Origin: an uncultured archaeon
Lineage (GTDB): Archaea > Iainarchaeota > Iainarchaeia > Iainarchaeales > GCA-2688035
Direction: 5' to 3'
DNA: 64,000 nt
Assembly: GCA_964354805.1 (NCBI GenBank)
Contig: CAYHBD010000030.1
Coordinates: 1 to 64,000, forward strand
The notes under the pieces are model-generated. The model searched no databases, was not told the origin of the DNA, and saw nothing but the letters and a program-made list of their open reading frames with translations. The translations under genes and the position numbers were made by a program. Of the stretch, positions 39,701 through 54,486 are shown piece after piece (the first letter of the stretch is position 1; each line of letters begins with the position of its first letter).

Positions 39701-40414
39701 TTGCCAGCTGAGGCCGTGATTAGGGCTGAGAATGTTTCAAAAGCTTACCAGATGGGCACTATTCAGGTAAAGGCACTGGACAATGTCAGCCTGGGCATTA
39801 AAAAAGGCGAATTCATTGCAATAATGGGGCCAAGCGGCAGCGGGAAGACAACTTTGCTTGATGTTTTGAGCGCTTTGCTGAGGCCAAGCAGCGGTGAAGT
39901 GTTCATCAATGGCAGGCCGATAAGCGAGATGGACGACAACCAGCTCGCTGTTGTAAGGGGCAGAACAATCGGATTTGTTTTCCAGACATTCAATCTGATA
40001 GCGAGAATGACTGCTTTGGAAAATGTCATGCTGCCTTTGTGGTTCCTGGGAAAAAGCCCGGAGGAAAGAAAAGCTGCTGCAGAGAAAATTTTGACAGATG
40101 TTGGCATGGCTGAAAGGATGCAGCACAGGCCGAACGAGCTGAGCGGAGGCCAGAGGCAGAAGGTTGCGATCGCAAGGGCGCTTGCAGTAAACCCTGATGT
40201 GATTGTTGCCGATGAGCCTACCGGAAACCTTGACAGCGCAAGCGGCGAGCAAATCCTGAACATAATAAAGGAATTGCACGAGAAAAAAGGGAAAACAGTT
40301 CTGATGGTAACGCATGAAAGATACGTTGCGGAGAAGGCTGAAAAAATCCTGCATTTGCGGGATGGCATGATTGTTAAAAAGGAAGAAATAACCAAAAAAA
40401 GGAGAGGTGGTTGA
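39701..40414 (+). CDS. ABC ATPase, LolD/MacB type
   Basis: GPSGSGKT, LSGGQ, ADEPTGNLD. Confidence 0.95.
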   Translation: MPAEAVIRAENVSKAYQMGTIQVKALDNVSLGIKKGEFIAIMGPSGSGKTTLLDVLSALLRPSSGEVFINGRPISEMDDNQLAVVRGRTIGFVFQTFNLIARMTALENVMLPLWFLGKSPEERKAAAEKILTDVGMAERMQHRPNELSGGQRQKVAIARALAVNPDVIVADEPTGNLDSASGEQILNIIKELHEKKGKTVLMVTHERYVAEKAEKILHLRDGMIVKKEEITKKRRGG

Positions 40415-40418
40415 AAAA

Positions 40419-41660
40419 ATGAATTGGAAAAACGTTTTGTTTTTGGCGCTGCTGATTTTTTTCGCAGGCAACGCGGCAGCAGGGGACCTGATTGCGAGCT
40501 CATTCAGCTATGAGCCAGCGCCTGCAGCGCCAGGCGGCACCTTGAGCGTGTGGGTATACATAAAGAATGATTCATCCTACTTGTCAGAGGACGCCAAACT
40601 TAAAGTGGAATTAAGCTATCCACTGTCGCTGCAGCCAGGGCAAGAGGCTGAAATAGGGTTGGGCGACATAGATCTTTTCAAAACAAAAGCAGTTGAATTC
40701 AAGATTCTGGTGGATCCGAAAGCAATAGATGGAAGATACAGCATAAAGTTTCTTTTTGGCGAGGGTGGTTTCTTCAAGAGCAAAACCGAGCTTGTAAGCG
40801 TACTAAGCAGGACGCCGAAGCTGGAGATAATCGAAAGCGATGTTACACAGCTTGAGCCTGGCCAGGTTGCAACAGTCAACCTTTCAATTAAAAACATCGG
40901 CGGCAGCATCGCAAAAAACATTGTTGTGAAAACAACTGAGGACAGGACAGTCACTTCAACAGGCGTTGTGGTTGAAAGGGAAATTGTTTCACTTGGGGCA
41001 ACAACGAAATATGTTGAATTCCTTGACCCTGACCAGCAGACTACAGTGCAGATGCAGCTTGCAGTGAACGAAGGTGCTGAACTGAAAAATTACTCGGTTC
41101 CAATAACAATGGAATACTATGACATAAATGGAACCGCAAAAACAGACACGGGCTACCTTGGCTTGAAAGTAACAGCAGCACCAGAGGTTGATGCTGTAAT
41201 CAGCAGCGTAACGCCATACGCTTTCCCTGGCACAACAGCGGAACTTACAATTGACTTGTTCAACATAGGTTCGGCTGACGCAAAATATGTAACAGTTGAA
41301 TTGAGCGGGGAAGGTGTTGAAATAGCCGAGCCAAAGCAATTCATTGGAACGCTGGAAGCTGACGACTTTGATTCATTCAAAACAAGCGCTAAATTCAGCC
41401 AGGCAGTGCAGCCGGGGCAGCAATTGCCGATCACGCTGAAAATAATTTACAAGGACCCTGAACAGCAAACGCAGGTCAAGCCAAAACAGCTTTCACTGAA
41501 AGTGCTCACTGCAGCGGAGATGCAGGCAACAGCAGGCATTGGGCCAGCCGCAATAATTATAGGGCTGTTCTCCCTGGCAGTCCAGCTGATTGGATTGTAC
41601 GTTGTAGCACGGTTCGGCTACAGGAAATTCAAGCAGTTCAGGGGAAAGAAGGGGAAATAA
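40419..41660 (+). CDS. COG1361-like S-layer domain protein
   Basis: Signal peptide, repeated PG...N.G Ig modules, C-terminal TM helix. Confidence 0.82.
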   Translation: MNWKNVLFLALLIFFAGNAAAGDLIASSFSYEPAPAAPGGTLSVWVYIKNDSSYLSEDAKLKVELSYPLSLQPGQEAEIGLGDIDLFKTKAVEFKILVDPKAIDGRYSIKFLFGEGGFFKSKTELVSVLSRTPKLEIIESDVTQLEPGQVATVNLSIKNIGGSIAKNIVVKTTEDRTVTSTGVVVEREIVSLGATTKYVEFLDPDQQTTVQMQLAVNEGAELKNYSVPITMEYYDINGTAKTDTGYLGLKVTAAPEVDAVISSVTPYAFPGTTAELTIDLFNIGSADAKYVTVELSGEGVEIAEPKQFIGTLEADDFDSFKTSAKFSQAVQPGQQLPITLKIIYKDPEQQTQVKPKQLSLKVLTAAEMQATAGIGPAAIIIGLFSLAVQLIGLYVVARFGYRKFKQFRGKKGK

Positions 41661-41766
41661 AAACCTGCAATTAATTTCCTTTTGAATTTTTTTCAATTCA
41701 AGGGAAAAAAATGAAATAGAAACAGCAAATTATCCCCATATGCTTTCCTTTCTTAAAGGTGGTTGG

Positions 41767-42972
41767 TTGATTGATTCAGAACTGCTGGATGTGGCATTCA
41801 AAAACCTCAAAGCGCGAAAGCTGCGCAGCTATCTCACCCTGCTTGGCATAGTTATCGGGATTGCAGCAATTGTAGCGCTTGTTTCATTGGGCGAAGGACT
41901 GAACCAGGCAGTAACCCAGCAGTTCGAGCAGCTCGGCCTGAACACCCTTGTTGTAGAGCCAGGCAGCGGCAGCTTTGTTTCAACGGCCGTTGCAAGAACC
42001 TTAAAGGAAGATGACGAAAGGCTGATTGAGGGCATTGCAGGCGTTGAGGCAGTAGTCGGATTTTATGAAACAGCAGCTGTTGCCGAATTCAAGAACGGGA
42101 AAAGCAGCGTATTCATAATCGGCTTTGACCCCAAAAAAATGCCTTACCTCGAAAAAATGGGTTACAGCGAGTTAACTAAAGGGAGAAAATTGCAGCCAAG
42201 CGACAAATATGCTGTCATGCTGACAGAGGGCTTTGCGGCAAACGGCTTTGTCGACGAAACATTGAGGGTAAAAGACAGCCTTGAAATAAACGGCCAGAAA
42301 TTCAAAATCGTCGGCATAACAAAAGACATGGGCGGCTTCATGGGCGGAGGCATAATGTCAAATTTCCTCTTCATGCCAAAGAAAACAGTGCAGGACTTTT
42401 TTTCCGGAAGCAATCCGACAGAATTGATTGTAGAGTTAACAGACAAGTCAATGGCTGACGAGGTTGCGGAAAAAATAAAGACAAAGCTGCTGCGGGCGCA
42501 TGGGGAAGAAGATTTTTATGTCATGACAATGGAGAACATAATGGAAAGCGCGGGCGTTGTGCTGGGATTAATTCAGCTTGTGCTTGTCGGCCTTGCGGCA
42601 ATCTCACTGCTTGTTGGAGGCATTGGAATAATGAACACAATGCTGATGTCAGTAATGGAAAGGACAACAGAGATTGGCACAATGAAGGCAATCGGCGCAA
42701 CAAACAGCAGGGTTTTGTCAATATTTCTGGCTGAGGCAGCACTGCTCGGATTCACAGGCGGCCTGGTTGGCTCTGTCTTCGGCATTATGATTGCAGCAGG
42801 CGTTTCGGTTGTTGCAACAGCAACCGGCTTTCCCCTGCCTGTTGTCGTTAATCCGCTTGCATTTGTTGTGGCAATTGCCTTTGCAATGGCTGTCGGAATG
42901 ATTTCAGGGTACTATCCCGCAAGGCGAGCGGCATTGCTCGAACCTGTTGCAGCACTGAGGTACGCCGAATAA
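41767..42972 (+). CDS. ABC permease, MacB/FtsX type
   Basis: RSYLTLLGIVIG, GGIGIMNTM..SVMERT.EIG, YPARRA. Confidence 0.94.
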   Translation: MIDSELLDVAFKNLKARKLRSYLTLLGIVIGIAAIVALVSLGEGLNQAVTQQFEQLGLNTLVVEPGSGSFVSTAVARTLKEDDERLIEGIAGVEAVVGFYETAAVAEFKNGKSSVFIIGFDPKKMPYLEKMGYSELTKGRKLQPSDKYAVMLTEGFAANGFVDETLRVKDSLEINGQKFKIVGITKDMGGFMGGGIMSNFLFMPKKTVQDFFSGSNPTELIVELTDKSMADEVAEKIKTKLLRAHGEEDFYVMTMENIMESAGVVLGLIQLVLVGLAAISLLVGGIGIMNTMLMSVMERTTEIGTMKAIGATNSRVLSIFLAEAALLGFTGGLVGSVFGIMIAAGVSVVATATGFPLPVVVNPLAFVVAIAFAMAVGMISGYYPARRAALLEPVAALRYAE

Positions 42973-43161
42973 AAAAAACGAAGGTGAAAAATTGGCTTTG
43001 ATTAAATTTGAATTTTTTGTGGCATATAAAGTTTATGTATTGCCACTTTTTTTGATGAAACTTTTTCCAAAAATTTCTTGCATTGCATTAAAATAAAAAA
43101 AAGGTTGAAAAAAATGGATTAAAATTGCATCAAATTAAAAAAAACAAAAGGGGTTGAAAAA

Positions 43162-44361
43162 TTGGCTTTGGTTGATTTTGAATTGTTTCAGGTTGCGTTC
43201 AAAAACCTGAGGAGCAGGCGGTTGCGCAGCTTTCTCACTATTCTTGGGGTAGTTATCGGGATTGCGGCAATTGTTGCGCTTATTTCCATAGGCGAGAGCC
43301 TGAACCAATCTGTAACCAAGCAGTTCGAGCAGCTCGGCACAAGGACTTTGACTGTTACGCCAGGCGGCGGCCTTGCCGAAAGCACTTTGGCGAAACTGCA
43401 GACCGAAGACGTTGACACAATTGAAAAAGTGAAAGGGGTTGATTTTGCAACAGAGCTGTACATTGTATCAAGGCAGGTGGTTTTCAAGGGGGAAAAAAAG
43501 AGTGCTGTGATAATCGGCATTGACCCGGAAAAAATAGACGAACTCGGCATGATTGGAATGGTTGAAATCGGTTCAGGAAGGCAGCTTTCAAAAAATGACA
43601 CCACTGCCATAATCGTCGGAGAAAACTTCGGCGAAAAAATCCTCAAACAGGACCTGCGCCTGAAAGAGAGCCTTGAAATGGACAGCACAAAGCTGAAGGT
43701 TGTCGGAATACTGAAAGGCGCAAAGCAGAGCCTTGCAGCAATGTTCAACACCGCCATTGCAATGAACAGCGAGGAATTAAAAAAATTGAGCACTGAAGAA
43801 ATAACCCCATTCAGGATAATCGTGAATGTTTTGCCGGGCGAGGATGTGGAAGAAGTAAAGCAGCGCATAGCAGACAGGCTGGAGAAAAAGCACGGGAAAA
43901 AGGATTTCCAGGTTATGGCAATGCAGCAGATTGCCGACATTGCAGGGAGCGTTATTGGATTGATTAGCCTTGTGTTGATTGGAATTGCGGCAATCTCGCT
44001 GCTTGTAGGAGGCATTGGAATAATGAACACAATGCTGATGTCAGTAATGGAAAGGACAAGGGAAGTTGGAGTGATGAAAGCGATTGGCGCAACAACAAAC
44101 AGGATCATTGCAATCTTTGTTGTAGAAGCAGGAATGATTGGCCTGGCCGGCGGAATAATCGGATTGCTGGTCGGCGCTGGAATTGCAGCCGTTGTTTCAT
44201 TAGTAGCTGACGCTGCAGGCCTGCCCCTTGCAACAGCAGTAACACCCACACTGGTTATCGGGGCGCTTGCATTCAGCATGGCAATCGGGATGATTGCAGG
44301 CGTTTACCCGGCAAAAAGGGCGGCAAGCATAGACCCAGTGGAGGCGCTGAGATATGAATAA
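43162..44361 (+). CDS. ABC permease, MacB/FtsX type (paralog)
   Basis: Same motifs as the preceding gene. Confidence 0.94.
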   Translation: MALVDFELFQVAFKNLRSRRLRSFLTILGVVIGIAAIVALISIGESLNQSVTKQFEQLGTRTLTVTPGGGLAESTLAKLQTEDVDTIEKVKGVDFATELYIVSRQVVFKGEKKSAVIIGIDPEKIDELGMIGMVEIGSGRQLSKNDTTAIIVGENFGEKILKQDLRLKESLEMDSTKLKVVGILKGAKQSLAAMFNTAIAMNSEELKKLSTEEITPFRIIVNVLPGEDVEEVKQRIADRLEKKHGKKDFQVMAMQQIADIAGSVIGLISLVLIGIAAISLLVGGIGIMNTMLMSVMERTREVGVMKAIGATTNRIIAIFVVEAGMIGLAGGIIGLLVGAGIAAVVSLVADAAGLPLATAVTPTLVIGALAFSMAIGMIAGVYPAKRAASIDPVEALRYE

Positions 44362-44914
44362 AATAAATGAAGCCATGCCTGGAATTTTCAAGGGCCACCT
44401 TTGCTACATGATTTTGAGGGCCCTGCAAAAAAAGCCTTTGCATGGATATGCCATAATAAAAAGAATTGAGTTAATCACCGGCGATATCTGGAAGCCTACA
44501 ACTGGAAGCGTGTACCCCGCACTGGAGCAGATGCTAGGCAATGGCCTAATTTCAATAAAGGAAACAACAAAAAAAGGCAGGGAAAGGAAAGTATACGAGC
44601 TGACTGCAAAGGGGATGCAAGAGCTGAAGGAGAGGAAAAAAAGCGTTGAGAAAATAGTAAAAACAACAGATGAAATGTTCCAGCACCTTTTCCCGAAAGA
44701 GGTAAACAAAACAGAATTGCTGCAATTAATTGAAGAAGGCAGATTCCTGCAAAAGGAAATGATTGAAACAAGGCTGAATATGCTGAAGCTGCTTTCGCTC
44801 GGCAAAAAAGAAAGAATAAGCAGCAATGAAAAAGCCCAAATTAAAATAAAACTGGCTGAATTAAACGCCATGCTCAAGAAAATAATTGAAAGCAAAAATC
44901 AACCGCTTGGTTGA
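44354..44914 (+). CDS. PadR family transcriptional regulator
   Basis: HGYAI, GSVYPAL, RKVYELT.KG. Confidence 0.92.
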   Translation: MNKINEAMPGIFKGHLCYMILRALQKKPLHGYAIIKRIELITGDIWKPTTGSVYPALEQMLGNGLISIKETTKKGRERKVYELTAKGMQELKERKKSVEKIVKTTDEMFQHLFPKEVNKTELLQLIEEGRFLQKEMIETRLNMLKLLSLGKKERISSNEKAQIKIKLAELNAMLKKIIESKNQPLG

Positions 44915-45013
44915 GAAAAATCAACCGCAGTCATATTAAGTCCCCAGGCAGCAATCTCTTTTGGCTTGCCCACCAATTGTTTGGAAAGCCTGCCAAAAAA
45001 GGGGTTGTGAATT

Positions 45014-45292
45014 TTGCAGGGGATTACTGTTTTGGAGCTTGCCTTCATAAAGATTTTGAGAGCCAGGCTTCCGGACGCAAGCCCCATGCACCTGAAGGCA
45101 ATGCTTGCATTGCTCAGGGAAAAACAAAGCTATTTAACCCTGGATGAAATAGAAACATCAACGGCAATCCACAACGGCGAACTGAAAAAAATAATGCGTG
45201 ATTTTACCGCAACGCAACTGGTTGAAAAAGAAGGCTGCCTTTTCAGGAAACCGGAAAACAAAAAAGTAATGCAAATTATCTTAGGGAACTAA
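45014..45292 (+). CDS. Winged-helix-like protein, possibly a frameshifted continuation of the ORF starting at 44911
   Basis: LTLDEIET...ELKKIMRDF...LVEKEG wHTH pattern. Confidence 0.4.
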   Translation: MQGITVLELAFIKILRARLPDASPMHLKAMLALLREKQSYLTLDEIETSTAIHNGELKKIMRDFTATQLVEKEGCLFRKPENKKVMQIILGN

Positions 45293-45381
45293 GCAACCTC
45301 AATTTACCCCCTTTTTCCAACTTGCCCCTTGCCCTATCGCCTCAAGCAAAAGGAATAAAAATCTTGCAAAGCCAGTTATGT

Positions 45382-46140
45382 ATGGTTGGAATGATTGGAA
45401 TAATCGGCGGTAGTGGCCTTGAGGGCCCGAAGATTTTGAAGGACGCGAAAGAGGTTGAGGTTACCACGCCTTACGGAAAGCCTAGTTCAAAGCTTATTCT
45501 TGGAAAAATCAGCGGCATTGATGTTGCAATAATTTCAAGGCACGGAGAAAAGCATACTATCCCACCAACTCAAGTCAATTTTAGGGCAAATATTCAGGCG
45601 CTAAAAGACCAAGGAGTTACACACATACTCGCGACAACCGCTTGCGGAAGCCTTAGAAAAGAGATTGAAAGAGGTGACATTATTATTCTTGACCAATTTA
45701 TTGACTTTACAAGGCACAGAAAAGTAACCTATTATGAAGAGTTTCCACCTGGGGGGGAAAACGCAAAACATACGTCAATGCCCGATCCATTCTCGGAAGC
45801 ATTAAGACAACTACTAATTGAAACTTGCAAAGAACTGAAGTTTAAGTTTCATCCAAGAGGAACAGTGATTACTATCGAAGGGCCAAGGTTTTCTACTAGG
45901 GCCGAATCAAAAATGTTTAGGATTTGGGGTGCAGACGTGATAAACATGTCAATTGCCCCAGAATGCATTTTGGCAAACGAGGCAGGCCTTCAGTATGCGG
46001 CTGTTGCGATGTCTACAGACTATGATAGTTGGGCTGAGGAGGAGGCCCCTGTAGAATGGGAAGAACTCCTCAGAACATTCCACAAAAACGCAGATAATGT
46101 TAAGGCTCTTCTTATCAAAACAATACCAAAAATAAAATAA
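45382..46140 (+). CDS. mtnP: S-methyl-5'-thioadenosine phosphorylase
   Basis: IGIIGGSG, RHG..H.IPP, EGPRFSTRAES, INMS, TDYD. Confidence 0.94.
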   Translation: MVGMIGIIGGSGLEGPKILKDAKEVEVTTPYGKPSSKLILGKISGIDVAIISRHGEKHTIPPTQVNFRANIQALKDQGVTHILATTACGSLRKEIERGDIIILDQFIDFTRHRKVTYYEEFPPGGENAKHTSMPDPFSEALRQLLIETCKELKFKFHPRGTVITIEGPRFSTRAESKMFRIWGADVINMSIAPECILANEAGLQYAAVAMSTDYDSWAEEEAPVEWEELLRTFHKNADNVKALLIKTIPKIK

Positions 46141-46142
46141 AC

Positions 46143-47069
46143 TTAGATGGCATTGTGGCTTACGATGGGAAGGAAACTGTATTGCTCCCGCAGGTCTTCG
46201 TAATCTTCTGGCACCAGCCCAAACTCGATATTTCTCTTTATCTGCATGGGCATTTTTCTTCCGTAAATCCAAGAACGATAAGTTTCCCAGACAATATTCA
46301 AATCTCTAGCAGCCGCTCTCAGGCTTTTTCGGCAATTTAAATTATATCTTAAAGCGCCCAAATACTGCTGTTTATCGTATGACTTGCATTTCTTGAGATA
46401 TTCCACTGCCTCTGCCAACTTTTTACTTTTGTAGCCAATTGAAAAACCAACAAGCTCTTGATATTTTTCAAGATTTTCCAGAAGAGAGATTATCAGCTTG
46501 TCTGAACCGAATTTTTTTCTCAGCACTTTACTTTGGATGCCAATGTCCCAAAGCAGCCGTTTAATTTTCTCCAATAAGGCAGTGTCTGCTTGGGTTATTA
46601 CAATTTGTCTTCGATTATAGATAACATCCACACTTCCTTCTGAATCAGAAAATCCACGAATAAATCGCGCTTTTATGTTTTTATCTCCCTTAAGAACAAA
46701 CTCTGGAATTTGCGCGTTGTTTTTTGTAAGCTTAGCCAATCGTTTTGCCAGGAGAGTGCTATAAGCATAGCAATTGTAATAGTATTTATCATCTACCGGC
46801 GCATCTATACCATAAGTCTTCTTAATCAAAGCTGCAAAATGAAGGCAAAAGTCTAATTCCTTAACACGCAATCTAATATAGCCCCTGTCATTCCTTAGGT
46901 GACCATCACCCAACATTATGCCAACTATCTCCGCTTCATCCAAAAGCTCTTCATAAGTCTGCGGAACCTCTATTTCTTTTAGATTTTTGGATTTCAAACA
47001 GAACCCCTTACAACAGTATTCACTTTTTATTATTAAAGCCCTTTGAAAGAGCGGGGTTCCGGTGGTCAT
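46143..47069 (-). CDS. Free-standing two-motif LAGLIDADG protein with C-terminal HTH
   Basis: IVGIMLGDG and FIRGFSDSEG; SLRAAARDLNIVWETYRSW; alternative TTG start at 46997. Confidence 0.85.
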   Translation of the reverse strand: MTTGTPLFQRALIIKSEYCCKGFCLKSKNLKEIEVPQTYEELLDEAEIVGIMLGDGHLRNDRGYIRLRVKELDFCLHFAALIKKTYGIDAPVDDKYYYNCYAYSTLLAKRLAKLTKNNAQIPEFVLKGDKNIKARFIRGFSDSEGSVDVIYNRRQIVITQADTALLEKIKRLLWDIGIQSKVLRKKFGSDKLIISLLENLEKYQELVGFSIGYKSKKLAEAVEYLKKCKSYDKQQYLGALRYNLNCRKSLRAAARDLNIVWETYRSWIYGRKMPMQIKRNIEFGLVPEDYEDLREQYSFLPIVSHNAI

Positions 47070-47164
47070 AGGAAACCATCTCCTTTCATGTTCTTTAGAA
47101 GTTCATCAAATGAGAATCCATCTCCAAAAGGACTTCTTTTTTCTTCTGTAATCGAAAAACTCAT
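47066..47164 (-). CDS. 32-aa peptide ORF
   Basis: MSFSITEEKRSPFGDGFSFDELLKNMKGDGFL; SD GGAGGTG; stop overlaps the ATG at 47069. Confidence 0.55.
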   Translation of the reverse strand: MSFSITEEKRSPFGDGFSFDELLKNMKGDGFL

Positions 47165-47166
47165 AG

Positions 47167-47320
47167 CATCACCTCCAATGTATTATGAATTTTTTCGTGG
47201 ACGTCTTGCGAATTTTGGAGGCATTAAATTCTTTCCACCGAGAAACAGAATTTAAGCGTGGAAAGATTTAAGCCGAGAAAATTCGAGTCCTAAGAAAAAA
47301 TTCCAATATTGGAGGTGATG
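47167..47320. other. Long imperfect inverted repeat (fold-back)
   Basis: Nested helices CATCACCTCCAAT/ATTGGAGGTGATG, GAATTTTTTC/GAAAAAATTC, GGAC/GTCC, CGAATTTT/AAAATTCG, TTAAAT/ATTTAA, CTTTCCAC/GTGGAAAG. Confidence 0.85.
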
Positions 47321-47402
47321 ACATTTTTCTTACAGCAAATGCGAATGCCAAAAGCACATTGCCGGCGCAATAGTGAAAGTTGAAGAAGATTAAACGTCAT
47401 TT

Positions 47403-47747
47403 CTATTGCTTCCGCAGGAACTCGTTTCCTGCAAACGTTGTCTGCAGCACTGGCTGCTGCTCTTTTGCATAAGCCTTTTCCAAAGAGGCTGTGAAGCATT
47501 TTATTTTTTCAATCCACTCCAAATTCAGGCAGTATTCATTGTTTTCCTTCAATATAACGCCTTTCGCAGCCAGCTGGTTCAATGCCTTGTGGACAGCCTG
47601 GTATGAAACATGCAAAGCATACTGGCGGGTGACAGCGGAATAAATAGATTTTAAACTCAAAGGCCAGCGGCAGCTGAGAATTGCAACAACAGCATCCTTA
47701 ACCTTTCCTTCACCTTCAAAGCCAGAAGGCGAAGCAATTAACAGCAT
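47403..47747 (-). CDS. Winged-helix DNA-binding protein
   Basis: WPLSLKSIY...VSYQAVHKALNQL...GVI. Confidence 0.75.
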   Translation of the reverse strand: MLLIASPSGFEGEGKVKDAVVAILSCRWPLSLKSIYSAVTRQYALHVSYQAVHKALNQLAAKGVILKENNEYCLNLEWIEKIKCFTASLEKAYAKEQQPVLQTTFAGNEFLRKQ

Positions 47748-47880
47748 CGCCCACCCCCGACCTTTCACAGGCCATGTTATATAATACCCATCACCCCTTC
47801 CTTTTATACATTTGCATTTATGTATACACGTGAAAAAGGGGCAAAGAGCAAAAAAGGAATTATGTAGTAGGTGCTGTCCG

Positions 47881-48402
47881 CTATTCTTTCACAAAAATGC
47901 GGAACAAGCAGAATGGGTCGCCTTTTGCCCTGCACTTTATTTCCCTGCATTCAATGTTCTCTGCTGCAAAAGCGCTGGCTGCGCTGCCTGCAAGGAATCC
48001 GGCAATAAGAAAATCAACTGCAGCATCTGAAGGGTGCAGTGCTTTTGCAATATGGGAATCAGTCACTTTGACAAGCGCTTTTTTGTTCAGAGCATCAAAT
48101 TCAATCAGTTCGCCTTTGCCCAGGCCAGCCAATGCCAAGGTGTTAAGGTCGAATTCGGTTTGCTTTCTTGCATCCATTTTGAATTTTTCCTTTACCGCCT
48201 TGCTGTGCCTGCTGCTTGATTCTTTTGCAACAGCGTAAATTATGTCACTGTATTTTTCCGGCTGGGCTTTGCGCAGTTCTGTCAAAAGGGTGCTGTAAAA
48301 GCTTACCGGGCTCATTGCCATGTTCTGGCCAAGCAGCTTTATTTCGCCTTCCTCGAAACTGATCTGGTTTGCCAAAAGCAATTGCTTTACAAAATTAAAC
48401 AA
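47881..48402 (-). CDS. V4R domain protein
   Basis: GLG, AGFLAG, CREIKCRAKGDPFCLF. Confidence 0.88.
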   Translation of the reverse strand: MFNFVKQLLLANQISFEEGEIKLLGQNMAMSPVSFYSTLLTELRKAQPEKYSDIIYAVAKESSSRHSKAVKEKFKMDARKQTEFDLNTLALAGLGKGELIEFDALNKKALVKVTDSHIAKALHPSDAAVDFLIAGFLAGSAASAFAAENIECREIKCRAKGDPFCLFRIFVKE

Positions 48403-48501
48403 ACAACAACCACCTGCTGTTATAAAACAAAAGCCTGGAAAAAACTATAACTTAAATTTTCCCAAAAATAATAGGACCCTACTTTAATGAAAACCGGCAG
48501 G

Positions 48502-49260
48502 CTATGCCTTGAATTTGTCGCCTTCTGTAATTGTTATGCCTTCCTCTGTGATGTTGTACGGCAGTATGTCTTTCTCGTAAGCGCTGTACCTCATTTTTCT
48601 CACAAACATGCTTCTGTAGTCCGCAATCCCGATCTCAAAATAGCGCAATATTATTACCCCGTCCGTAATGAATTCGCTTACTCCGTCACTACTCAAGGCT
48701 CTTGCATCTTCAGGCAGTTCGCTTGTAAGCAGGGTTGTTGTATTGTAGCGCTTCAATTCCGCAACCAGCTTGTACAAAATGCTCTTTGAAACAATCTGCT
48801 CTGTCCTCGGAATAGGCGAAATGTTTTCAGCAACCTGCACAAGGCTGAAACTGCCTTTCTGGCTCAAGCCTCCAATTATCAGCGCATCTGTCATTGTTGT
48901 CAAGCTGTCAATTGCAATCCTCTTGGGCTTAAAGATCTTGATTGCTTCAAGCGCTTTTGCAAGAATGTCATCGCCCTGAGTAATGTCAAAGTAAACAATT
49001 TTGAGCAGGTTCTTTTTCTGCAGATCCATCAAATCCCAGCGAAATCCTTCAGCGTGCCGCTGCAGTTCAATGTCATCCTGCTCAGTGCTGATATACAGGC
49101 CTTTTTCCCCAAACATCTTTGCGCCATTAACAAGAAACTGCAGGCAAAAAGTGCTCTTTCCAGTGCCGGCTCCGCCGCTCAGCAAAACAATGTTCCCCTC
49201 AGGAATTCCGCCTGTCAGCGCCTTATCCAAGCCCCGGATCCCGGTTTTCGTTCTAGCCAT
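48502..49260 (-). CDS. Single-domain KaiC/RAD55-like ATPase
   Basis: TGIRGLD...GGIP, GGAGTGKS, IDSLT, RKMR. Confidence 0.9.
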   Translation of the reverse strand: MARTKTGIRGLDKALTGGIPEGNIVLLSGGAGTGKSTFCLQFLVNGAKMFGEKGLYISTEQDDIELQRHAEGFRWDLMDLQKKNLLKIVYFDITQGDDILAKALEAIKIFKPKRIAIDSLTTMTDALIIGGLSQKGSFSLVQVAENISPIPRTEQIVSKSILYKLVAELKRYNTTTLLTSELPEDARALSSDGVSEFITDGVIILRYFEIGIADYRSMFVRKMRYSAYEKDILPYNITEEGITITEGDKFKA

Positions 49261-49274
49261 CAATAATATAACCG

Positions 49275-49304
49275 TTCACTGATATTTAAATCTTTCACTG
49301 ATAT
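49275..49304. promoter_or_regulatory. Direct repeat flanking the TATA box of the KaiC-like gene
   Basis: TTCACTGATAT at 49275 and 49294 around TTTAAA. Confidence 0.5.
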
Positions 49305-49380
49305 AAGGCTGTTGTGTTGTCATGAATTAATGTTCTCCAACAATTAATGCAGCACATTCCTGTGCGCAAACTGCCCTGTT

Positions 49381-49956
49381 TTAAATTTCCAGCTGCAATT
49401 GCTGCTGGACTCTTTTGTCCGAGAAATCGAAAAGGTGCTGTTGTTTTACAATGAATTCGCAGTCGGCTTCTCCCAATGCAGTGCAGTGGGTTTCAACGCA
49501 GTCAACATCTGAAGCAAAGGCAGAGCTGAAAATGCCCGCAATCACCCCTCTCAAAAGGTGGTCGGCTGGCATCGAGGGCTTTTTGTGCAGCCTTGATGCA
49601 AAGGGGTTGTTTGCCACCTTGACTATTGCTTTTTTTGTTTTGAAATCAAGGTCAATGCTTTGCAGCATTCCCCAGCCAGAGGCAGTAAAAAACTTGTTCA
49701 GGAAATCAACCATTTGCGCTGATTCAAGCCCGAAACCAAATCCAAACTGGGAAACCAGGTTTTCTTTGACGTTTTTTCGCACGCTTGCATACAGCTGTTT
49801 TTCAAAATCGCAGTCTCCAGTGGAAAGCAGCGCGCTCAGGACATCAACAGGGCAAATGAGAAAGGGCACGTTCATCAGGAAAAACTGGTTTTGCCTGTAC
49901 TGCAATGCATTGGTGAAAATGAACCTGTCCAAAAAATTGTTGAGCATTATTGGCAC
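49381..49956 (-). CDS. V4R domain protein
   Basis: SGWG, RGVIAG, CVETHCTALGEADCEF. Confidence 0.88.
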   Translation of the reverse strand: MPIMLNNFLDRFIFTNALQYRQNQFFLMNVPFLICPVDVLSALLSTGDCDFEKQLYASVRKNVKENLVSQFGFGFGLESAQMVDFLNKFFTASGWGMLQSIDLDFKTKKAIVKVANNPFASRLHKKPSMPADHLLRGVIAGIFSSAFASDVDCVETHCTALGEADCEFIVKQQHLFDFSDKRVQQQLQLEI

Positions 49957-50032
49957 CTTCCGAATTTTTCCGCTTTGGGCAGAATAATAATCGCTCTTTT
50001 ATTTAAATAGTTTTCCTATTTTATTGATTTAG

Positions 50033-50956
50033 ATGAAAACAATCACAGTTGACCTGCATACGCACCTGATTGAGAAGCGGGAGAAGCCTGAGCGCTATTG
50101 GAGGGCGGTGAAGGCAAAAAAGCTGGATGCTGTTGCAATAACAGAGCATTTTGATTGCAAGCCGGAAAAGGCATACCAAATGCTTTTGGAAAAAAAGCCC
50201 AAAGCTGCTTTATTGCTCCCTGGAATGGAGCTGCAGACAAGCATTGGGCACGTTCTTGCTTTTGGCAAAAGCGATGAAATTTTTTCAATTGAAAAACTGT
50301 TCGAGAAAAAGCTGCCTATAAAAAAAGCAATTCAGGTTGCGCAAAAAAACGATTTGCTTTTGAGCATTGCACACCCCTGGGGATTGAGCTATGACAGCGC
50401 TGCATATTTGATGGGGGAAAAGCGATTGCACAAGCTGGTTACAGAAGGCGAAATTGGGGTTGAGGCATTCAACGGCATGTTCGGGCAGATCGGATACTTT
50501 TTTTACGGCACAAGCTGGGTCAGGAAGCCATTGAATTTTTTCGATTTTTTGGAGAAAAGCAGGATTGGAAGGAAAACAAGGCTGAGCAGGCTCGGCAGAA
50601 AAGCCAGGGAAAAGCTTGACAAAAAAGGCAGGGAAATCATTGAGAGATGCGTCAAGCCGCTTGAGCTGGCGCAGCACGCAAGTTTTTTCACTGCTGGCAG
50701 CGATGCCCACAGCCACGAGATGATTGGCGCAGGCGTGATGAAAATAAAAATTTCCGGAAGGCTGAGTGAAAAAAACATTTTGGGTGCGATGCAGCAGAAA
50801 AAGAACATTGAGTTTGTCGGGCCCTTTGTTAAAAAAACAAAGGCTGGAAATTACGGCATTGCAATGCAGCAGCTGCGCAAGAAACAGTTTTTGTCGGGCT
50901 TGCGGTATGCAACAAAGAGGGCGGTTGTAAAAAAGCTGAGGCTGCGGAGAAAGTGA
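50033..50956 (+). CDS. PHP domain metallo-phosphoesterase
   Basis: DLHTH, ITEH, AHP, GSDAH. Confidence 0.88.
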   Translation: MKTITVDLHTHLIEKREKPERYWRAVKAKKLDAVAITEHFDCKPEKAYQMLLEKKPKAALLLPGMELQTSIGHVLAFGKSDEIFSIEKLFEKKLPIKKAIQVAQKNDLLLSIAHPWGLSYDSAAYLMGEKRLHKLVTEGEIGVEAFNGMFGQIGYFFYGTSWVRKPLNFFDFLEKSRIGRKTRLSRLGRKAREKLDKKGREIIERCVKPLELAQHASFFTAGSDAHSHEMIGAGVMKIKISGRLSEKNILGAMQQKKNIEFVGPFVKKTKAGNYGIAMQQLRKKQFLSGLRYATKRAVVKKLRLRRK

Positions 50957-51015
50957 TTTGAATTGATTGTGATTGATGCAAAAAAAACTGCATTTTGGGC
51001 TGGAAGTGATTTCAT

Positions 51016-51426
51016 TTGATTGCTGCTGTTTCGCCTGATTCAAAGCTTGGTGATGTGCCTGCTGATGCAGCTGAACTGCATTTGGTAAGACCAGTGAAAA
51101 GCGAATTGCTTTCAGGGATTCTGCGAAAATGCAGTGCGCTTGAAAAAGTTACTTTGAGCAAAAGCTGCCTGCGCAGGATGCCTGCACAAAGCAGGCAATT
51201 GCTGCTGGAAAAGGGAATTGCGTTGGTTGAGCAAAACAGGCCAGGCAGGCCGATTGGCTTGCCATTGCAGAAGATGCTGCACGCGCTTGAAATGAGGAAA
51301 GACTACCAGACCCTGCGCGAAATTGAAAGAGTTACAGGGATTCCAAAAAGCACTGTGCATTATTTGCAGAGATATGCCCAGAGGACAAAGATTAAAAACG
51401 GAAAAAACATAGTCTATCTAAAGTGA
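51016..51426 (+). CDS. DUF1699-like protein with C-terminal HTH
   Basis: HLVRP, RPGRP, TLREIERVTGIPKSTVHY. Confidence 0.6.
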   Translation: MIAAVSPDSKLGDVPADAAELHLVRPVKSELLSGILRKCSALEKVTLSKSCLRRMPAQSRQLLLEKGIALVEQNRPGRPIGLPLQKMLHALEMRKDYQTLREIERVTGIPKSTVHYLQRYAQRTKIKNGKNIVYLK

Positions 51427-51435
51427 GGGAGAAAA

Positions 51436-51762
51436 ATGCCTAACGAATTTTTTAAGCAGATGGTGCTTGATTTGACCAGAAAGGGTGCAGTTGAAAAGGT
51501 GCGCTTTTTGAAAAACCTGCACAAAAAAGTAATGCCCTCGCAGTTTGAAAAAATCAGGAGAAATGACAAAAAAGTAATGCAGGAACTTTTTTTGCCAAAA
51601 TGGCTTTCTTGGGAACTGCTTAGAGCATGGGCTGACAATGTAACGCCAATCGGAAAAGGAAGGGCATGCGCTTTATGCGATTTAAAAAGCGATCTTGGAA
51701 TCATGTTCAATGAAAAATTCGTCTGCGAAAACTGCTTCATAAGGCTGCATCAGCTGAAATAA
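51436..51762 (+). CDS. Hypothetical protein with C-terminal zinc finger
   Basis: CALC...VCENC; SD GAGG. Confidence 0.7.
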   Translation: MPNEFFKQMVLDLTRKGAVEKVRFLKNLHKKVMPSQFEKIRRNDKKVMQELFLPKWLSWELLRAWADNVTPIGKGRACALCDLKSDLGIMFNEKFVCENCFIRLHQLK

Positions 51763-51766
51763 CTGG

Positions 51767-52435
51767 TTATTCCCTTTCTCCAAACAAAGCAGTGCCCAAG
51801 CGCAACATCGTGCTCCCTTCCTCGATTGCAATTTGGTAATCATTGCTCATTCCCATGCTCAGTTCGCGCAAACCAAGCTGCTGGGCAAGCTGCCTCATTT
51901 TCTTAAAATACTGCCTTGTCTGCTCCGCAGGCAAAAGGGGAGCCATGCAGAACAAGCCTTTCACCTGCAAATTGGGCAGTTTTTTTATTTCATTATAAAA
52001 AGAGGGAACATTCTCCGGCAGCACGCCGAATTTGCTTTTCTCAGCGGCAATATTCACTTCAATAAAAACTGGGAATTGCTTTTCCGCTGCATCATTTATT
52101 TTCCGGGCGAGCTTTAACGAATCAACGCTCTGAACGCACGAAAACAATTCAACAGCTTGCAGGACTTTGTTGCTCTGCAGGTGCCCGATGAAATGCCATT
52201 CAACTCTGCCGCCGATTTCTTTTATTTTTTGCTCTGCTTCCTGCACATAGTTTTCTCCGCAGATTCGAATGCCTGCAGCAATCGCTGCATTGATTTTTTC
52301 AATTGGCTGGGCTTTAACCGCTGCAAGGATTGAAATTTCATCTGCATCTCTGCCTGCCTTTGCGCAGGCAGCTGCAATGTTTTTCTTGATTGCAGCAAAA
52401 TTCTGGTTTATTTTTTCAGCAGATAAATTTTGCAT
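51767..52435 (-). CDS. yggS: YggS/PLPBP pyridoxal phosphate homeostasis protein
   Basis: GENYVQE, WHFIGHLQSNK, LSMGMSNDY, RLGTALFG. Confidence 0.95.
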   Translation of the reverse strand: MQNLSAEKINQNFAAIKKNIAAACAKAGRDADEISILAAVKAQPIEKINAAIAAGIRICGENYVQEAEQKIKEIGGRVEWHFIGHLQSNKVLQAVELFSCVQSVDSLKLARKINDAAEKQFPVFIEVNIAAEKSKFGVLPENVPSFYNEIKKLPNLQVKGLFCMAPLLPAEQTRQYFKKMRQLAQQLGLRELSMGMSNDYQIAIEEGSTMLRLGTALFGERE

Positions 52436-52526
52436 ATTTATCCTCTGTTGCATTTCGTAACGCGTCTGCAAAAGCATTTTTTGTTTTTGCCGAGCTGTTG
52501 TTAGCCTCAAGGTAAAAGAAAAGAAA

Positions 52527-52664
52527 TTACCAGTTTGGCCTTCTTTGCTCTTGCTGCATCCTGTAATGGCAGCCTGGGCATTCAAGAGTCATAAGAACCC
52601 TGTCGCCGGCCAATTCAGCGAAATCAACGGCTCTCATTTCTGTTCCGCATTTCGGGCAGCGCAT
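52527..52664 (-). CDS. 45-aa CPxCG zinc-finger microprotein
   Basis: Hand translation MRCPKCGTEMRAVDFAELAGDRVLMTLECPGCHYRMQQEQRRPNW. Confidence 0.75.
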   Translation of the reverse strand: MRCPKCGTEMRAVDFAELAGDRVLMTLECPGCHYRMQQEQRRPNW

Positions 52665-52792
52665 TTGAGGTCAAATGATTTATGGGGGGCAATTGTTTAA
52701 AAGGATAATTTGGCAGGAGGGGATTCAGCGAAATATTGCTCGGCTTGGGAATTGTTTTAAAAGGATAATTCAGGGTTTTTATTTTGGTTCTT

Positions 52793-53470
52793 ATGGCAAT
52801 AAAGGCTGTTTTGTTTGATTTGGATAACACTTTGGTTGACTTCATGCGGATGAAGCAGCTGTGCAGCGAGGCTGCGATTCACGCAATGAGGGATGCCGGC
52901 TTGCAAATGCAGCATGGCAAGGCATTGCGCTTGCTGTTCAAATTGTATGAGAAGCACGGGATTGAAGACCAGAAAATTTTTGAGAAATTTTTGCGAAAAG
53001 CGATTGGCGCTGTTGACTACAGGATTCTGGCACAGGGTATTGCCGCTTACAGGAGAGTAAAGGCAGGCTACCTGGTCCCTTACCCCCATGTCAGGGAAAC
53101 ACTGATTAAGCTGAAAGAAAATGGCATTGCGCTCGGAATAGTGAGCGATGCCCCGAGAATGCAGGCATGGCTCAGGCTGGCTGAAATGAATTTAACCGAA
53201 TTCTTTGATTTGGTGATTGCATTGGAGGACACAGGGCAAAAAAAGCCGAGCAAGCTGCCTTTCAGGCAGGCGATAAAAAAACTGCGCATTAAGCCAAAAG
53301 AAATTCTTTTCGTCGGAGACAACCCGCAAAGAGATATAAAGGGAGCGAAAAGCGTTGGAATGAGGACAGCCCTGGCGCGCTATGGGCAATTGATGAAAGG
53401 AAAAGCAAAAGCGGAATTTGTTTTAAACGACATAAGCGATTTGGCAAAAATAGTAAAGACGTATACATAA
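52793..53470 (+). CDS. HAD-superfamily hydrolase
   Basis: FDLDNTL, VSD, KKP, VGDNPQRDI. Confidence 0.92.
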   Translation: MAIKAVLFDLDNTLVDFMRMKQLCSEAAIHAMRDAGLQMQHGKALRLLFKLYEKHGIEDQKIFEKFLRKAIGAVDYRILAQGIAAYRRVKAGYLVPYPHVRETLIKLKENGIALGIVSDAPRMQAWLRLAEMNLTEFFDLVIALEDTGQKKPSKLPFRQAIKKLRIKPKEILFVGDNPQRDIKGAKSVGMRTALARYGQLMKGKAKAEFVLNDISDLAKIVKTYT

Positions 53471-53484
53471 CAGAAGTTGTTTGC

Positions 53485-54486
53485 TCAAGTGTACTCCTTA
53501 AACATGAAACCTTTGTTTTTTTGAAAAAATTCCCTTGCCAGCTCTATGCATTTCATTAACGCAGCTTTTATGTCTTCTCCTTCTCCGTTGAAGCCTGCTG
53601 CGCCTGCATGGCCTCCGCCGCTCCCTGGATAGAATGCAGGCATTTTTTGGAAAACGTCTTTTGCCAAATCAAACCCTGTTTTTTTCAAAACGTGCTGTGC
53701 TGCCCTGCCGCTGATGCGAAGCTTTCCGTCATCGCTGTCGCCGGCAAATGCGATGTCTGCGCCGATTTTCACCAGTGTTGATGCAGCATCAGCTTCAAAC
53801 GCCCCGATGTCTGCTGTTGCCGCAATGAAATCGTTAATCCTGAATATCCTGCTTCTTTTCGCTGCTTTCAATGCAGCAATCTTTTGGTCGAATGTTAATG
53901 GAGCTGAGAAAAGGCTAAGCAGCCAGCTCAGGTTTTTTTTGTTCTTTTGCATTACTGCCGCCATTATTGCAAATGTTTTGCTGTTTGCTGTCTGAAAGTG
54001 GGCGCTGTCAGTTACAATGCCTGCTGCAATGCATGTTGCAATTCGTTCATCAATCGGAATGCGGTTTTTTTGCAGCAAGTCGAATACTATTTCGCAGCTT
54101 GCGACAGCTTCTGGGTTTATCAGGGCATTTACCCTCTTGCCGATTTTTTCGCCTGTTTTTTCGTGGTGGTCGATTAAATAGATTGGACCGTTAAAGCGCT
54201 TTATTGCGTCTGCTGCGCTGCCGGCCATTGAAAGACTGTTGAAATCCACAAGGAAAAGGCAGCCAAAGCTTGAAATGTCATCGAATCCGTTTAAGTGGTA
54301 CGGGATTTTTTGTTTTTCCGCAAAAGCTTTTGCTGGCTTTGCAATGTGTTGCGGAACAGCGATTTCCACTTTGTTTTTTTTGCTTAATGCGAAAGACAAC
54401 CCCGCTGCTGCAGCAATTGCGTCAACATCGCAGCCTGCGTGCGTTACAATTAGGATTTTTTTTCCTTTAATGCTGCTAAGCTGCAA
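53485..54486 (-). CDS. DHH/DHHA1 phosphoesterase
   Basis: THAGCDVDA, IDHH, GIVTDS, GGGHAGAAG. Confidence 0.9.
   Translation of the reverse strand: MQLSSIKGKKILIVTHAGCDVDAIAAAAGLSFALSKKNKVEIAVPQHIAKPAKAFAEKQKIPYHLNGFDDISSFGCLFLVDFNSLSMAGSAADAIKRFNGPIYLIDHHEKTGEKIGKRVNALINPEAVASCEIVFDLLQKNRIPIDERIATCIAAGIVTDSAHFQTANSKTFAIMAAVMQKNKKNLSWLLSLFSAPLTFDQKIAALKAAKRSRIFRINDFIAATADIGAFEADAASTLVKIGADIAFAGDSDDGKLRISGRAAQHVLKKTGFDLAKDVFQKMPAFYPGSGGGHAGAAGFNGEGEDIKAALMKCIELAREFFQKNKGFMFKEYT

Follow-up and report, generated by a model that had tools for sequence, protein, structure and literature searches.

The locus and its leader element

The element described here lies on the minus strand of a stretch of 64,000 nucleotides (hereafter, the window), positions 1 to 64,000 of contig CAYHBD010000030.1 (assembly GCA_964354805.1), from an uncultured archaeon of the order Iainarchaeales. 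At this locus a free-standing gene for a LAGLIDADG homing endonuclease, with a helix-turn-helix (HTH)-like tail at its C-terminus, is preceded by a small open reading frame (ORF) of 32 codons, ORF1, and ORF1 is in turn preceded by a segment of 154 nucleotides whose fold pairs the Shine-Dalgarno (SD) sequence of ORF1 with an anti-SD, a copy of the 3' tail of the 16S rRNA (Table 1). The segment belongs to a multi-copy family that retains its pairing through compensatory changes across the order, and we propose that it probably functions as a cis-acting RNA lock in the 5' leader of a mobile endonuclease cassette.

The minus strand of the segment folds into a single long bulged hairpin with a minimum free energy (MFE) of –59 kcal/mol, compared with –25.8 ± 3.3 kcal/mol for 200 dinucleotide shuffles, none of which was as stable (z = –10.05). 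Its outermost helix is formed by two arms of 13 nucleotides each (47167–47179 and 47308–47320) that are complementary at every position (13/13, 100%), and the arm 13-mer is unique within the window, where 0.13 matches would be expected by chance. According to the computed pairing probabilities, the SD is fully occluded in the full-length leader (unpaired probability 0.000) and largely free once the 5' arm is removed (0.84); among the 64 aligned copies described below, 54 have an SD core with an unpaired probability below 0.1 in the full leader. The hairpin and its 13-bp helix, masking the SD of a 32-aa ORF, had been noticed in a first-pass annotation of the same sequence and are borne out here, as is the peptide with two GDGF motifs whose stop overlaps the longest LAGLIDADG start in ATGA; the annotation's proposal of TTG 46997 as a separate start is supported by an ortholog (genome G003, see below) that begins at the same codon.

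Table 1. Parts of the structured leader and of the endonuclease cassette in the window
Feature	Positions	Strand	Basis or remark
Structured leader element, long bulged hairpin, 154 nt	47167..47320	–	Member of a multi-copy RNA family, covariance model R1
Outer-helix 5' arm, anti-SD CAUCACCUCCAAU / CAUCACCUCC, copy of the 16S rRNA 3' tail	47308..47320	–	13/13 complementarity; covaries with the SD arm
T6 run in the 5' arm, GAAUUUUUUC	47295..47300	–	Nearly invariant in 64 aligned copies
TTTAAT in the 3' arm, preceded by CAAAGGA; B recognition element (BRE)/TATA-like candidate internal promoter	47223..47228	–	Invariant amid covarying helices
SD of the leader ORF, GGAGGUGAU / GGAGGTGAT	47168..47176	–	3 nt ahead of ATG 47164; fully paired in the hairpin
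ORF1, 32-aa type-A leader micro-protein MSFSITEEKRSPFGDGFSFDELLKNMKGDGFL	47066..47164	–	GDGF twice; 27 type-A homologs, alignment A7
ATGA, overlap of the ORF1 stop TGA (47068–47066) with the long-form ATG (47069–47067)	47066..47069	–	SD-like GGAGAUGG ~7 nt upstream
Promoter box CACCGGAACCCCGCTCT of the candidate DNA-repair regulon (CAGCGGAAS-N4-CTCT)	47048..47064	–	25 genome sites
TATA box TTTAATAA of the nuclease's own promoter	47030..47037	–	10 nt past the box; layout as at other box sites
SD-like GGGGU (47007–47003) and TTG start (46997–46995) of the short, probably main, nuclease form	46995..47007	–	Alignment with the G003 ortholog
Free-standing LAGLIDADG homing-endonuclease gene, C-terminal HTH-like tail	46143..46997	–	284 aa from TTG

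A covarying RNA family of the order

The host genome (G000; 1.38 Mb in 49 contigs) contains four further copies of the element with 76–87% identity, five in all, each in the same orientation and directly followed by a small ORF and a LAGLIDADG gene, and the nucleases behind them are very unlike (308, 358, 426 and ~470 aa, and one with a shifted N-terminus). BLAST detects the element in 22 of the 23 genomes of the taxonomic family, at 1–8 copies each. From 66 copies that were gathered, 64 were aligned (A4) and used to build a covariance model (R1), which finds the element in 57 of the 151 genomes sampled from the order. These genomes represent 32 of 65 genera and 17 of 32 families, and a single genome has as many as 16 matches when both strands are counted. 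The model scores ~190 bits on the sense strand and ~60 on the antisense, and the orientation of the interior relative to the peptide ORF is constant in all copies. Among 61 downstream ORFs, 41 match LAGLIDADG_3 and 59 fall in one phmmer cluster; the corresponding figure for far relatives is 29 of 38. Metagenome runs with related DNA derive from groundwater and sediment, and no RNA run was listed as carrying the sequence.

Pairing was counted over a structure of five helices and 48 pairs, which was transferred from the MFE fold of the window to the 64-copy alignment, because RNAalifold applied to a plain MAFFT alignment recovered the structure in part only. On this count 92.5% of the cells are paired, against 87.2 ± 0.3% after shuffling, and two-sided changes occur in 174 cells, against 61.7 ± 7.5; neither value was reached in any of 500 shuffles, and when partners were slid by 1–3 columns as a control, 37–57% of the cells were paired. 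The compensatory changes involve the SD/anti-SD helix itself (U-A 35 and C-G 21 copies at one pair, A-U 51 and G-C 7 at another), the fourth helix (G-C 27/U-A 22; G-C 29/A-U 26; A-U 33/C-G 12) and the apical helix (A-U 25/C-G 23). Whole helices have been replaced in other families of the order without loss of pairing, for example GAAUUUU/AAAAUUC to GCGCGGCGC/GCGCCGCGC, while the SD, GAAUUUUUUC/GAAAAAAUUC and CGGCUUAAAC, paired with UUUAAUGCC(UCC), are near-invariant even in far relatives, and the asymmetric internal loops UUA/ACG, UC/CAAGAC and CUC/UCC are conserved across the order. That more than 100 homologous copies retain the pairing by compensatory changes shows the hairpin to be beyond chance.

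No counterpart was met with in the sources consulted: an Rfam cmscan of window positions 40000–54000 (E ≤ 1) returned only a chance REN-SRE match elsewhere, the same database gave for four sister loci only a tRNA and a chance, sub-threshold folP (21 bits against a cut-off of 99), and full-text literature searches found no description of such a leader in archaea.

What precedes the hairpin is variable. The upstream flanks of the copies are mutually unrelated and often consist of a tRNA gene or a T-run; no conserved promoter was found there among the copies, and TATA-like hexamers at promoter distance are not enriched (8 of 64 copies, against 2–14 of 64 in other 15-nt bins). Several copies, including L013, L033, L035 and L068, directly follow tRNA genes, and on contig C35 a tRNA match (L002:873-1050(+); Rfam, 45.8 bits) lies ~450 nt upstream of the copy, its length of 178 nt indicating that it is probably an intron-containing tRNA gene. 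A dispersed repeat that encodes ..PFF(Q/L)KESLGKE.. in one frame (L002:2810-2962(+); C18:1-400) occurs downstream of the C35 nuclease and around the tRNA upstream of a LAGLIDADG gene on C18 that has no hairpin. Two of the five copies of the host genome, those of the window (47389-47394(-)) and of C28 (L005), share the stretch CGTTTAATCTT..AACTTTC upstream; in C28 it stands ~26-32 nt from the hairpin, which is promoter distance from its first base, and in the window ~47 extra nt with the near-palindrome ATTGCGCCGGCAAT intervene.

Some parts within the hairpin may have functions of their own. In the helix that contains the T6 run, three pairs are formed in all 64 copies and the others in 54–63 of 64, and the run is retained in far relatives. 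Oligo-T stretches have a known role in archaeal transcription termination, and the T6 run could act as such a signal, ending part of the incoming transcription. In the 3' arm, TTTAAT is a hexamer that shows, in the host genome, a promoter-type positional peak around –30 ahead of long ORFs, and the CAAAGGA before it resembles the stretch that precedes the TATA at the box promoters described below; the two together form a candidate internal promoter, with a transcription start expected near 47200 (~27 nt past TTTAAT). A second CCUCC (GCCUCCAAAAU, minus strand; window 47211-47221 and 47305-47315), located in the middle of the 3' arm and near-invariant across the order, might take the place of the 5' arm in pairing with the SD.

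The leader micro-protein and its overlap with downstream frames

ORF1 occurs in two types, of which the window carries type A, in a hydrophilic version. Type A has ~32–36 residues (consensus MSFSQKxSExKGNPFGxGFSLxELxxNMK) and type B ~47 (consensus MxFxEKFDFPLPxxEEIKxAKxIAxxNPEDLDGRDxWILxEFxGSD); both recur in other families of the order, and hhalign finds them unrelated to each other. Median pairwise dN/dS is 0.37 for type A and 0.27 for type B, with pS near 0.6, values which indicate that both are under purifying selection and that type A is a real micro-protein. Sequence and structure comparisons add little on function: the type-A peptide of the window has no match in Pfam and no usable match in the protein Atlas, 24 type-B peptides give nothing significant in Pfam (E ≥ 0.1), a type-B profile run against 1.8 billion representative proteins retrieves 48 clusters, all of small stand-alone proteins and with no informative fusion, and AlphaFold predicts for type A one short helix at low confidence (pLDDT 57). 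The ORF1 types do not follow the nuclease subfamilies, HTH-repeat nucleases occurring with either type, and therefore a specific partner of ORF1 cannot be claimed. In type B the invariant FPLP codons, UUUCCUCUUCCA, constitute a second, downstream anti-SD (e.g., L004:1662-1802(+), L005:1354-1494(-)), which in RNAs of the L004/L005 kind devoid of the 5' arm re-pairs with the SD (computed unpaired probability 0.11-0.22), so that part of the conservation of the type-B peptide may reside at the RNA level.

The end of ORF1 is usually tied to the start of another frame. In the window, the codons for the second GDGF provide the SD-like sequence for the overlapping AUG. Thirty-seven of the 66 copies have an ORF1 stop that overlaps the start of a long LAGLIDADG ORF by 4–13 nt (as ATGA, ATGAATAG or GTG...TGA), and in 13 it is overlapped instead by a hydrophobic ORF of 26–54 aa (ORF2; missing from the window copy), most of which are predicted to cross the membrane twice; among the remainder, the SD stands directly on the nuclease ORF in five, no overlap is seen in five, and six are cut or degenerate. 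This tally of stop/start overlaps suggests that translational coupling is a conserved feature. ORF2 is found at L014:1273-1410(-), L017:1235-1387(-), L022:1790-1945(+), L030, L033, L037, L041, L062 and others, an example being MNLKWMAFPLFLLVIPPIALQMLGFDWKSTELYTYYIGFFLGIAFG; several end in WWFP plus ATGA, as type-A ORF1 does, and it is possible that ORF2 is a small membrane toxin or a holin-like peptide.

The endonuclease and its own promoter

Two forms of the nuclease can be read, a long one of 308 aa from the overlapping ATG (47069-46143) and the short one from TTG. Its only Pfam match is to LAGLIDADG_3 (PF14528; E 2.7e-14, 53.6 bits against a cut-off of 22.5), the acidic residue is kept in both motifs (IVGIMLGDG and FIRGFSDSEG), and the closest solved chain is PDB 1DQ3, deposited as ‘endonuclease’ (E 1.5e-4, 24.7 bits). 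The possibility of a domesticated regulator similar to WhiA, raised in the first-pass annotation, does not agree with the retained acidic residues, with a Pfam match to LAGLIDADG_3 only, nor with a gene that is multi-copy and patchy among relatives.

Directly after the stop of ORF1, and ahead of TTG 46997, the window carries a promoter box and a TATA box. The box sequence has 25 sites in the host genome, nearly always 9–12 nt before a TTTAAA-type TATA (e.g., C18:15432(-), C16:40814(+), C28:92029(-), C28:90001(-), C8:45658(+)), and the genes behind these sites include radA (with an intein), nurA, a Cas4-like PD-(D/E)XK nuclease, a radical-SAM/HhH gene, both primase subunits, an RNase-H-like exonuclease, a Bro-N gene and LAGLIDADG cassettes, which makes them a candidate DNA-repair/replication regulon. 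The same layout recurs in 33 cassette copies, and most cassettes of the family have both boxes after ORF1, with an ATG or GTG 27–30 nt past the TATA; in the window there is no ATG at +27–30, and an SD-like GGGGU with an in-frame TTG at +40 is found. Genome-wide, TATA hexamers peak 28–33 nt before the ATG of long ORFs, which suggests that many host mRNAs are leaderless or nearly so.

As the box and the TATA follow ORF1, the conserved N-terminus of the long form, MxxG(T/N/S)PLFQ..FK..K, is promoter DNA read in frame. This frame is open in 22 of 22 loci whose ORF1 stop overlaps as NTGA, an observation that is suggestive of translation of the long form and is weakened as such by the fixed 60-nt geometry and by shared descent. 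The host genome also has four more free-standing LAGLIDADG genes without a hairpin: C28:49087-49380(-), with a degenerate box CAGTGGAACAGTGCTCT plus TTTAAGAAG; C16:128068-128337(-), with a small AbrB-like gene ahead; C28:39940-40173(-), with degenerate motifs; and C18:874-1026(+).

Separability and mobility of the cassette

The nuclease adjoins the MTAP gene in two of six closely related genomes, the host and G003, whereas the four other closest MTAP orthologs have no such neighbour; the closest MTAP relatives are metagenome-assembled genomes labelled Ca. Woesearchaeota or Ca. Iainarchaeum. In G014, MTAP directly abuts the membrane-protein gene which in G003 stands ahead of the nuclease. The G003 ortholog (L128:2255-3200) occupies the same tail-to-tail MTAP site, is 65% identical over residues 26–304, and is preceded by the box ACAGTGGAAATCCACTCT, by TTTTAAAAG, by GGGGTG and by a TTG aligned with 46997. 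Neither hairpin nor ORF1 was found there by inspection of the upstream region or by cmsearch with filters off. From the comparison of these sites it would follow that the nuclease is a mobile insertion, that its real start is TTG 46997 and that it can be expressed from its own promoter, and the leader-less ortholog, with promoter and TTG, presents the leader as a separable accessory addition; judging from the very different genes that it precedes, the hairpin and ORF1 together make up an accessory module that has become attached to a wide range of nuclease bodies. The first-pass annotation suggested examining the upstream regions of homologs for conserved structure; such structure is present across the order, where the hairpin covaries, and absent at this ortholog, where hairpin and peptide are missing; the multiplicity of the element, the nuclease promoter downstream of the peptide and the dispensability of the leader in one ortholog go beyond that annotation.

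Four DNA metagenome runs were compared as contigs only, with fragmentary cover. No strand-changing joints are listed in them, an absence that contigs cannot establish. In one run (X4) a joint 46194->47391 skips nuclease and hairpin (one contig, depth 2.8, side 30, likeness threshold 88); it may reflect a strain without the cassette or an artefact, and is too weak to be taken as an empty site. Replacement of the end of MTAP by the cassette was considered as well and rejected, since the conservation of MTAP C-termini looks the same whether or not the nuclease is present.

A proposed translational lock and its alternatives

We favour the view, with somewhat more confidence than doubt, that the hairpin is a cis-acting RNA lock in the 5' leader of a mobile LAGLIDADG homing-endonuclease cassette. 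Because the upstream flanks are unrelated and show no TATA enrichment, RNA with both arms would probably come from read-through. Transcription entering from upstream would give an RNA that folds as the 154-nt hairpin, in which the anti-SD would pair with the perfect SD of ORF1 and leave ORF1 untranslated; the long form of the nuclease, its start overlapping the ORF1 stop (AUGA), would also remain untranslated, and the cassette would thus be insulated against host read-through. The nuclease proper would be produced from its own box and TATA promoter, within the radA/nurA/primase regulon, bypassing the lock, and TTTAAT in the 3' arm would probably yield transcripts without the 5' arm, in which the SD of ORF1 is free, as does the late promoter of T4 I-TevI. 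The RNA-gated peptide/nuclease module suggested by the first-pass annotation fits this scheme, in that the SD helix, the peptide ORF and the overlap are conserved beside homologs order-wide.

Several observations weigh against a lock that acts as RNA. The plus strand of the segment folds equally well (–63 kcal/mol), because the element is near-palindromic, and the wobble count (61 G:U, 22 of them at one column, versus 56 A:C) does not prove which strand folds; the most invariant parts are A/U-rich and TATA-like, and so also compatible with a purely DNA-level role. The nuclease does not depend on the lock, given its own promoter and an ortholog that is viable without the leader, and for the same two reasons the selective value of the leader is unclear. 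Lastly, in type-B leaders the SD of the truncated RNA re-pairs with ORF1 codons (median unpaired probability 0.29).

The first three of these points would also fit a palindrome acting as DNA, i.e. as a symmetric protein site, a divergent promoter/operator, or a cruciform or recombination site for leader exchange. Each arm has an outward-facing BRE/TATA-like element, the invariant core CGGCTTAAAC / TTTAATGCC is TATA-like and TTTAAT behaves as a TATA in the genome, the strands fold alike with no wobble asymmetry, and a modular leader on unrelated nuclease bodies suggests recombination. Such a role is nonetheless unlikely, though it is the alternative that we take most seriously: the asymmetric internal loops have been kept across the order instead of being homogenised, the pairing extends precisely to the SD of an ORF under selection, with which it covaries, the mirror element TTTAAG is unenriched at promoter positions (5/32), and the sense model scores far above the antisense one.

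Rather improbable in our judgement is a second possibility, that the hairpin, ORF1 and sometimes the two-helix membrane peptide constitute a portable module for regulation or addiction, passed from cassette to cassette, in which ORF1 would favour homing or retention by acting in trans on repair, replication or translation in the host; were it true, archaea would have an equivalent of hok/mok-type control, here linked to a DNA-damage regulon. We give slightly less credence to the hairpin and ORF1 being a stabilising module in the style of type I toxin-antitoxin systems, in which they would gate a coupled toxic product, namely a small membrane peptide in some copies and the nuclease itself in the window. 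In mok/hok a fold-back that masks an SD is combined with a translationally coupled leader ORF, a layout that the element matches, and 13 of the 66 copies do carry a hydrophobic ORF2 over the ORF1 stop. Most copies, however, are without ORF2; the window copy, which also lacks it and has a hydrophilic ORF1, offers no small hydrophobic toxin, we know of no antisense RNA for the element, and the G003 ortholog persists without the module.

The two remaining proposals are very improbable. A miniature inverted-repeat transposable element (MITE), or a segment that inverts between the 13-bp repeats, as entertained in the first-pass annotation, placed here by chance, would account for perfect 13-bp terminal inverted repeats, multiple copies and a palindromic make-up, but position and orientation are fixed relative to ORF1 and the LAGLIDADG gene (59/61), the flanks share no common target-site duplication, the 3' repeat looks like a functional SD and is correctly spaced from a conserved ORF, the interior is not flipped in any copy, and the contigs of the four DNA runs list no strand-changing joint. 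The idea of a structured non-coding RNA serving the nuclease in trans as a guide or cofactor, in the manner of the omega-RNAs of IscB/TnpB, draws on a conserved structured RNA with a variable apical loop that adjoins a nuclease gene, but the same RNA precedes LAGLIDADG proteins only 8–25% identical to that of the window (alignment A5), the variable parts are paired and not free, the longest match of the window's apical loop to the flanks is 6 nt where 7.5 would be expected, the G003 ortholog has no such RNA, and LAGLIDADG enzymes recognise DNA via protein contacts; the endonuclease-associated RNA of the first-pass annotation, understood as a private partner of this nuclease, is likewise not supported.

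Relation to known systems

The family is absent from Rfam and no description of it was found in the literature; the position of a DNA-repair-regulon promoter between the peptide stop and the TTG is also new. If the lock operates as proposed, the regulatory logic of T-even phages would now be represented in archaeal chromosomes, as a covarying structured RNA family of a DPANN order whose genomes, of 1–1.5 Mb, hold up to 16 copies of the element each, together with two micro-protein families. It would provide a testable picture of how such small genomes tolerate many active-looking nucleases, silent on read-through RNA and expressed with the recombination machinery. The family is a clean candidate for an Rfam entry and offers material for the study of SD-dependent translational control and coupling in archaea.

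The nuclease itself is, by sequence, an ordinary member of PF14528. It shares with archaeal LAGLIDADG endonucleases of that family, free-standing or borne by inteins and introns, the two acidic motifs and the patchy presence at a fixed site, and is set apart by its C-terminal HTH-like tail, by a score of only 24.7 bits to the closest solved chain and by having no intron or intein context. Its promoter recalls the DNA-damage-responsive promoter element of the Sulfolobales, reportedly read by Orc1-2, in that a short box at a fixed distance before the TATA is common to radA and other repair genes; here, the lineage is another, the box is CAGCGGAAS-N4-CTCT, and nuclease cassettes carry it too.

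In hok/mok/sok, where the leader ORF is required for translation of the downstream ORF that overlaps it, a fold-back likewise masks initiation, and a small hydrophobic peptide is found in some copies of our element; by contrast, the coupled product in the window is a nuclease, and the fold-back is a local 5' hairpin instead of a pairing between 5' and 3' ends.

The closest published analogue is found in the hairpins that sequester ribosome-binding sites in phages of the T4 type, in I-TevI (a likeness already pointed out by the first-pass annotation), I-TevII, I-TevIII, segB and Aeh1 mobE, where RNA from upstream promoters is untranslated and a promoter inside or after the 5' arm gives an unlocked RNA (PMC2988022, ‘Translational regulation’). 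In both cases the consensus SD that lies shortly before a selfish nuclease unit is paired within a highly stable hairpin, the promoter in or after the 5' arm being in our case a candidate only (TTTAAT in the 3' arm), and the lack of a conserved promoter upstream of the archaeal hairpin is consistent with read-through as in the phage locks. The differences are several. The element resides in an archaeal chromosome and not in a phage; whereas the phage hairpins are short and gene-specific, it measures ~150–190 nt, has five conserved helices and forms an order-wide multi-copy family; the locked start is that of a 32-codon ORF1 coupled to the nuclease, and that of the nuclease directly in only 5 of 66 copies; and the nuclease, a LAGLIDADG and not a GIY-YIG or HNH enzyme, has an additional promoter of the DNA-repair regulon. 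By this analogy, the element would work like the translational locks of the T4 type while standing outside that set.

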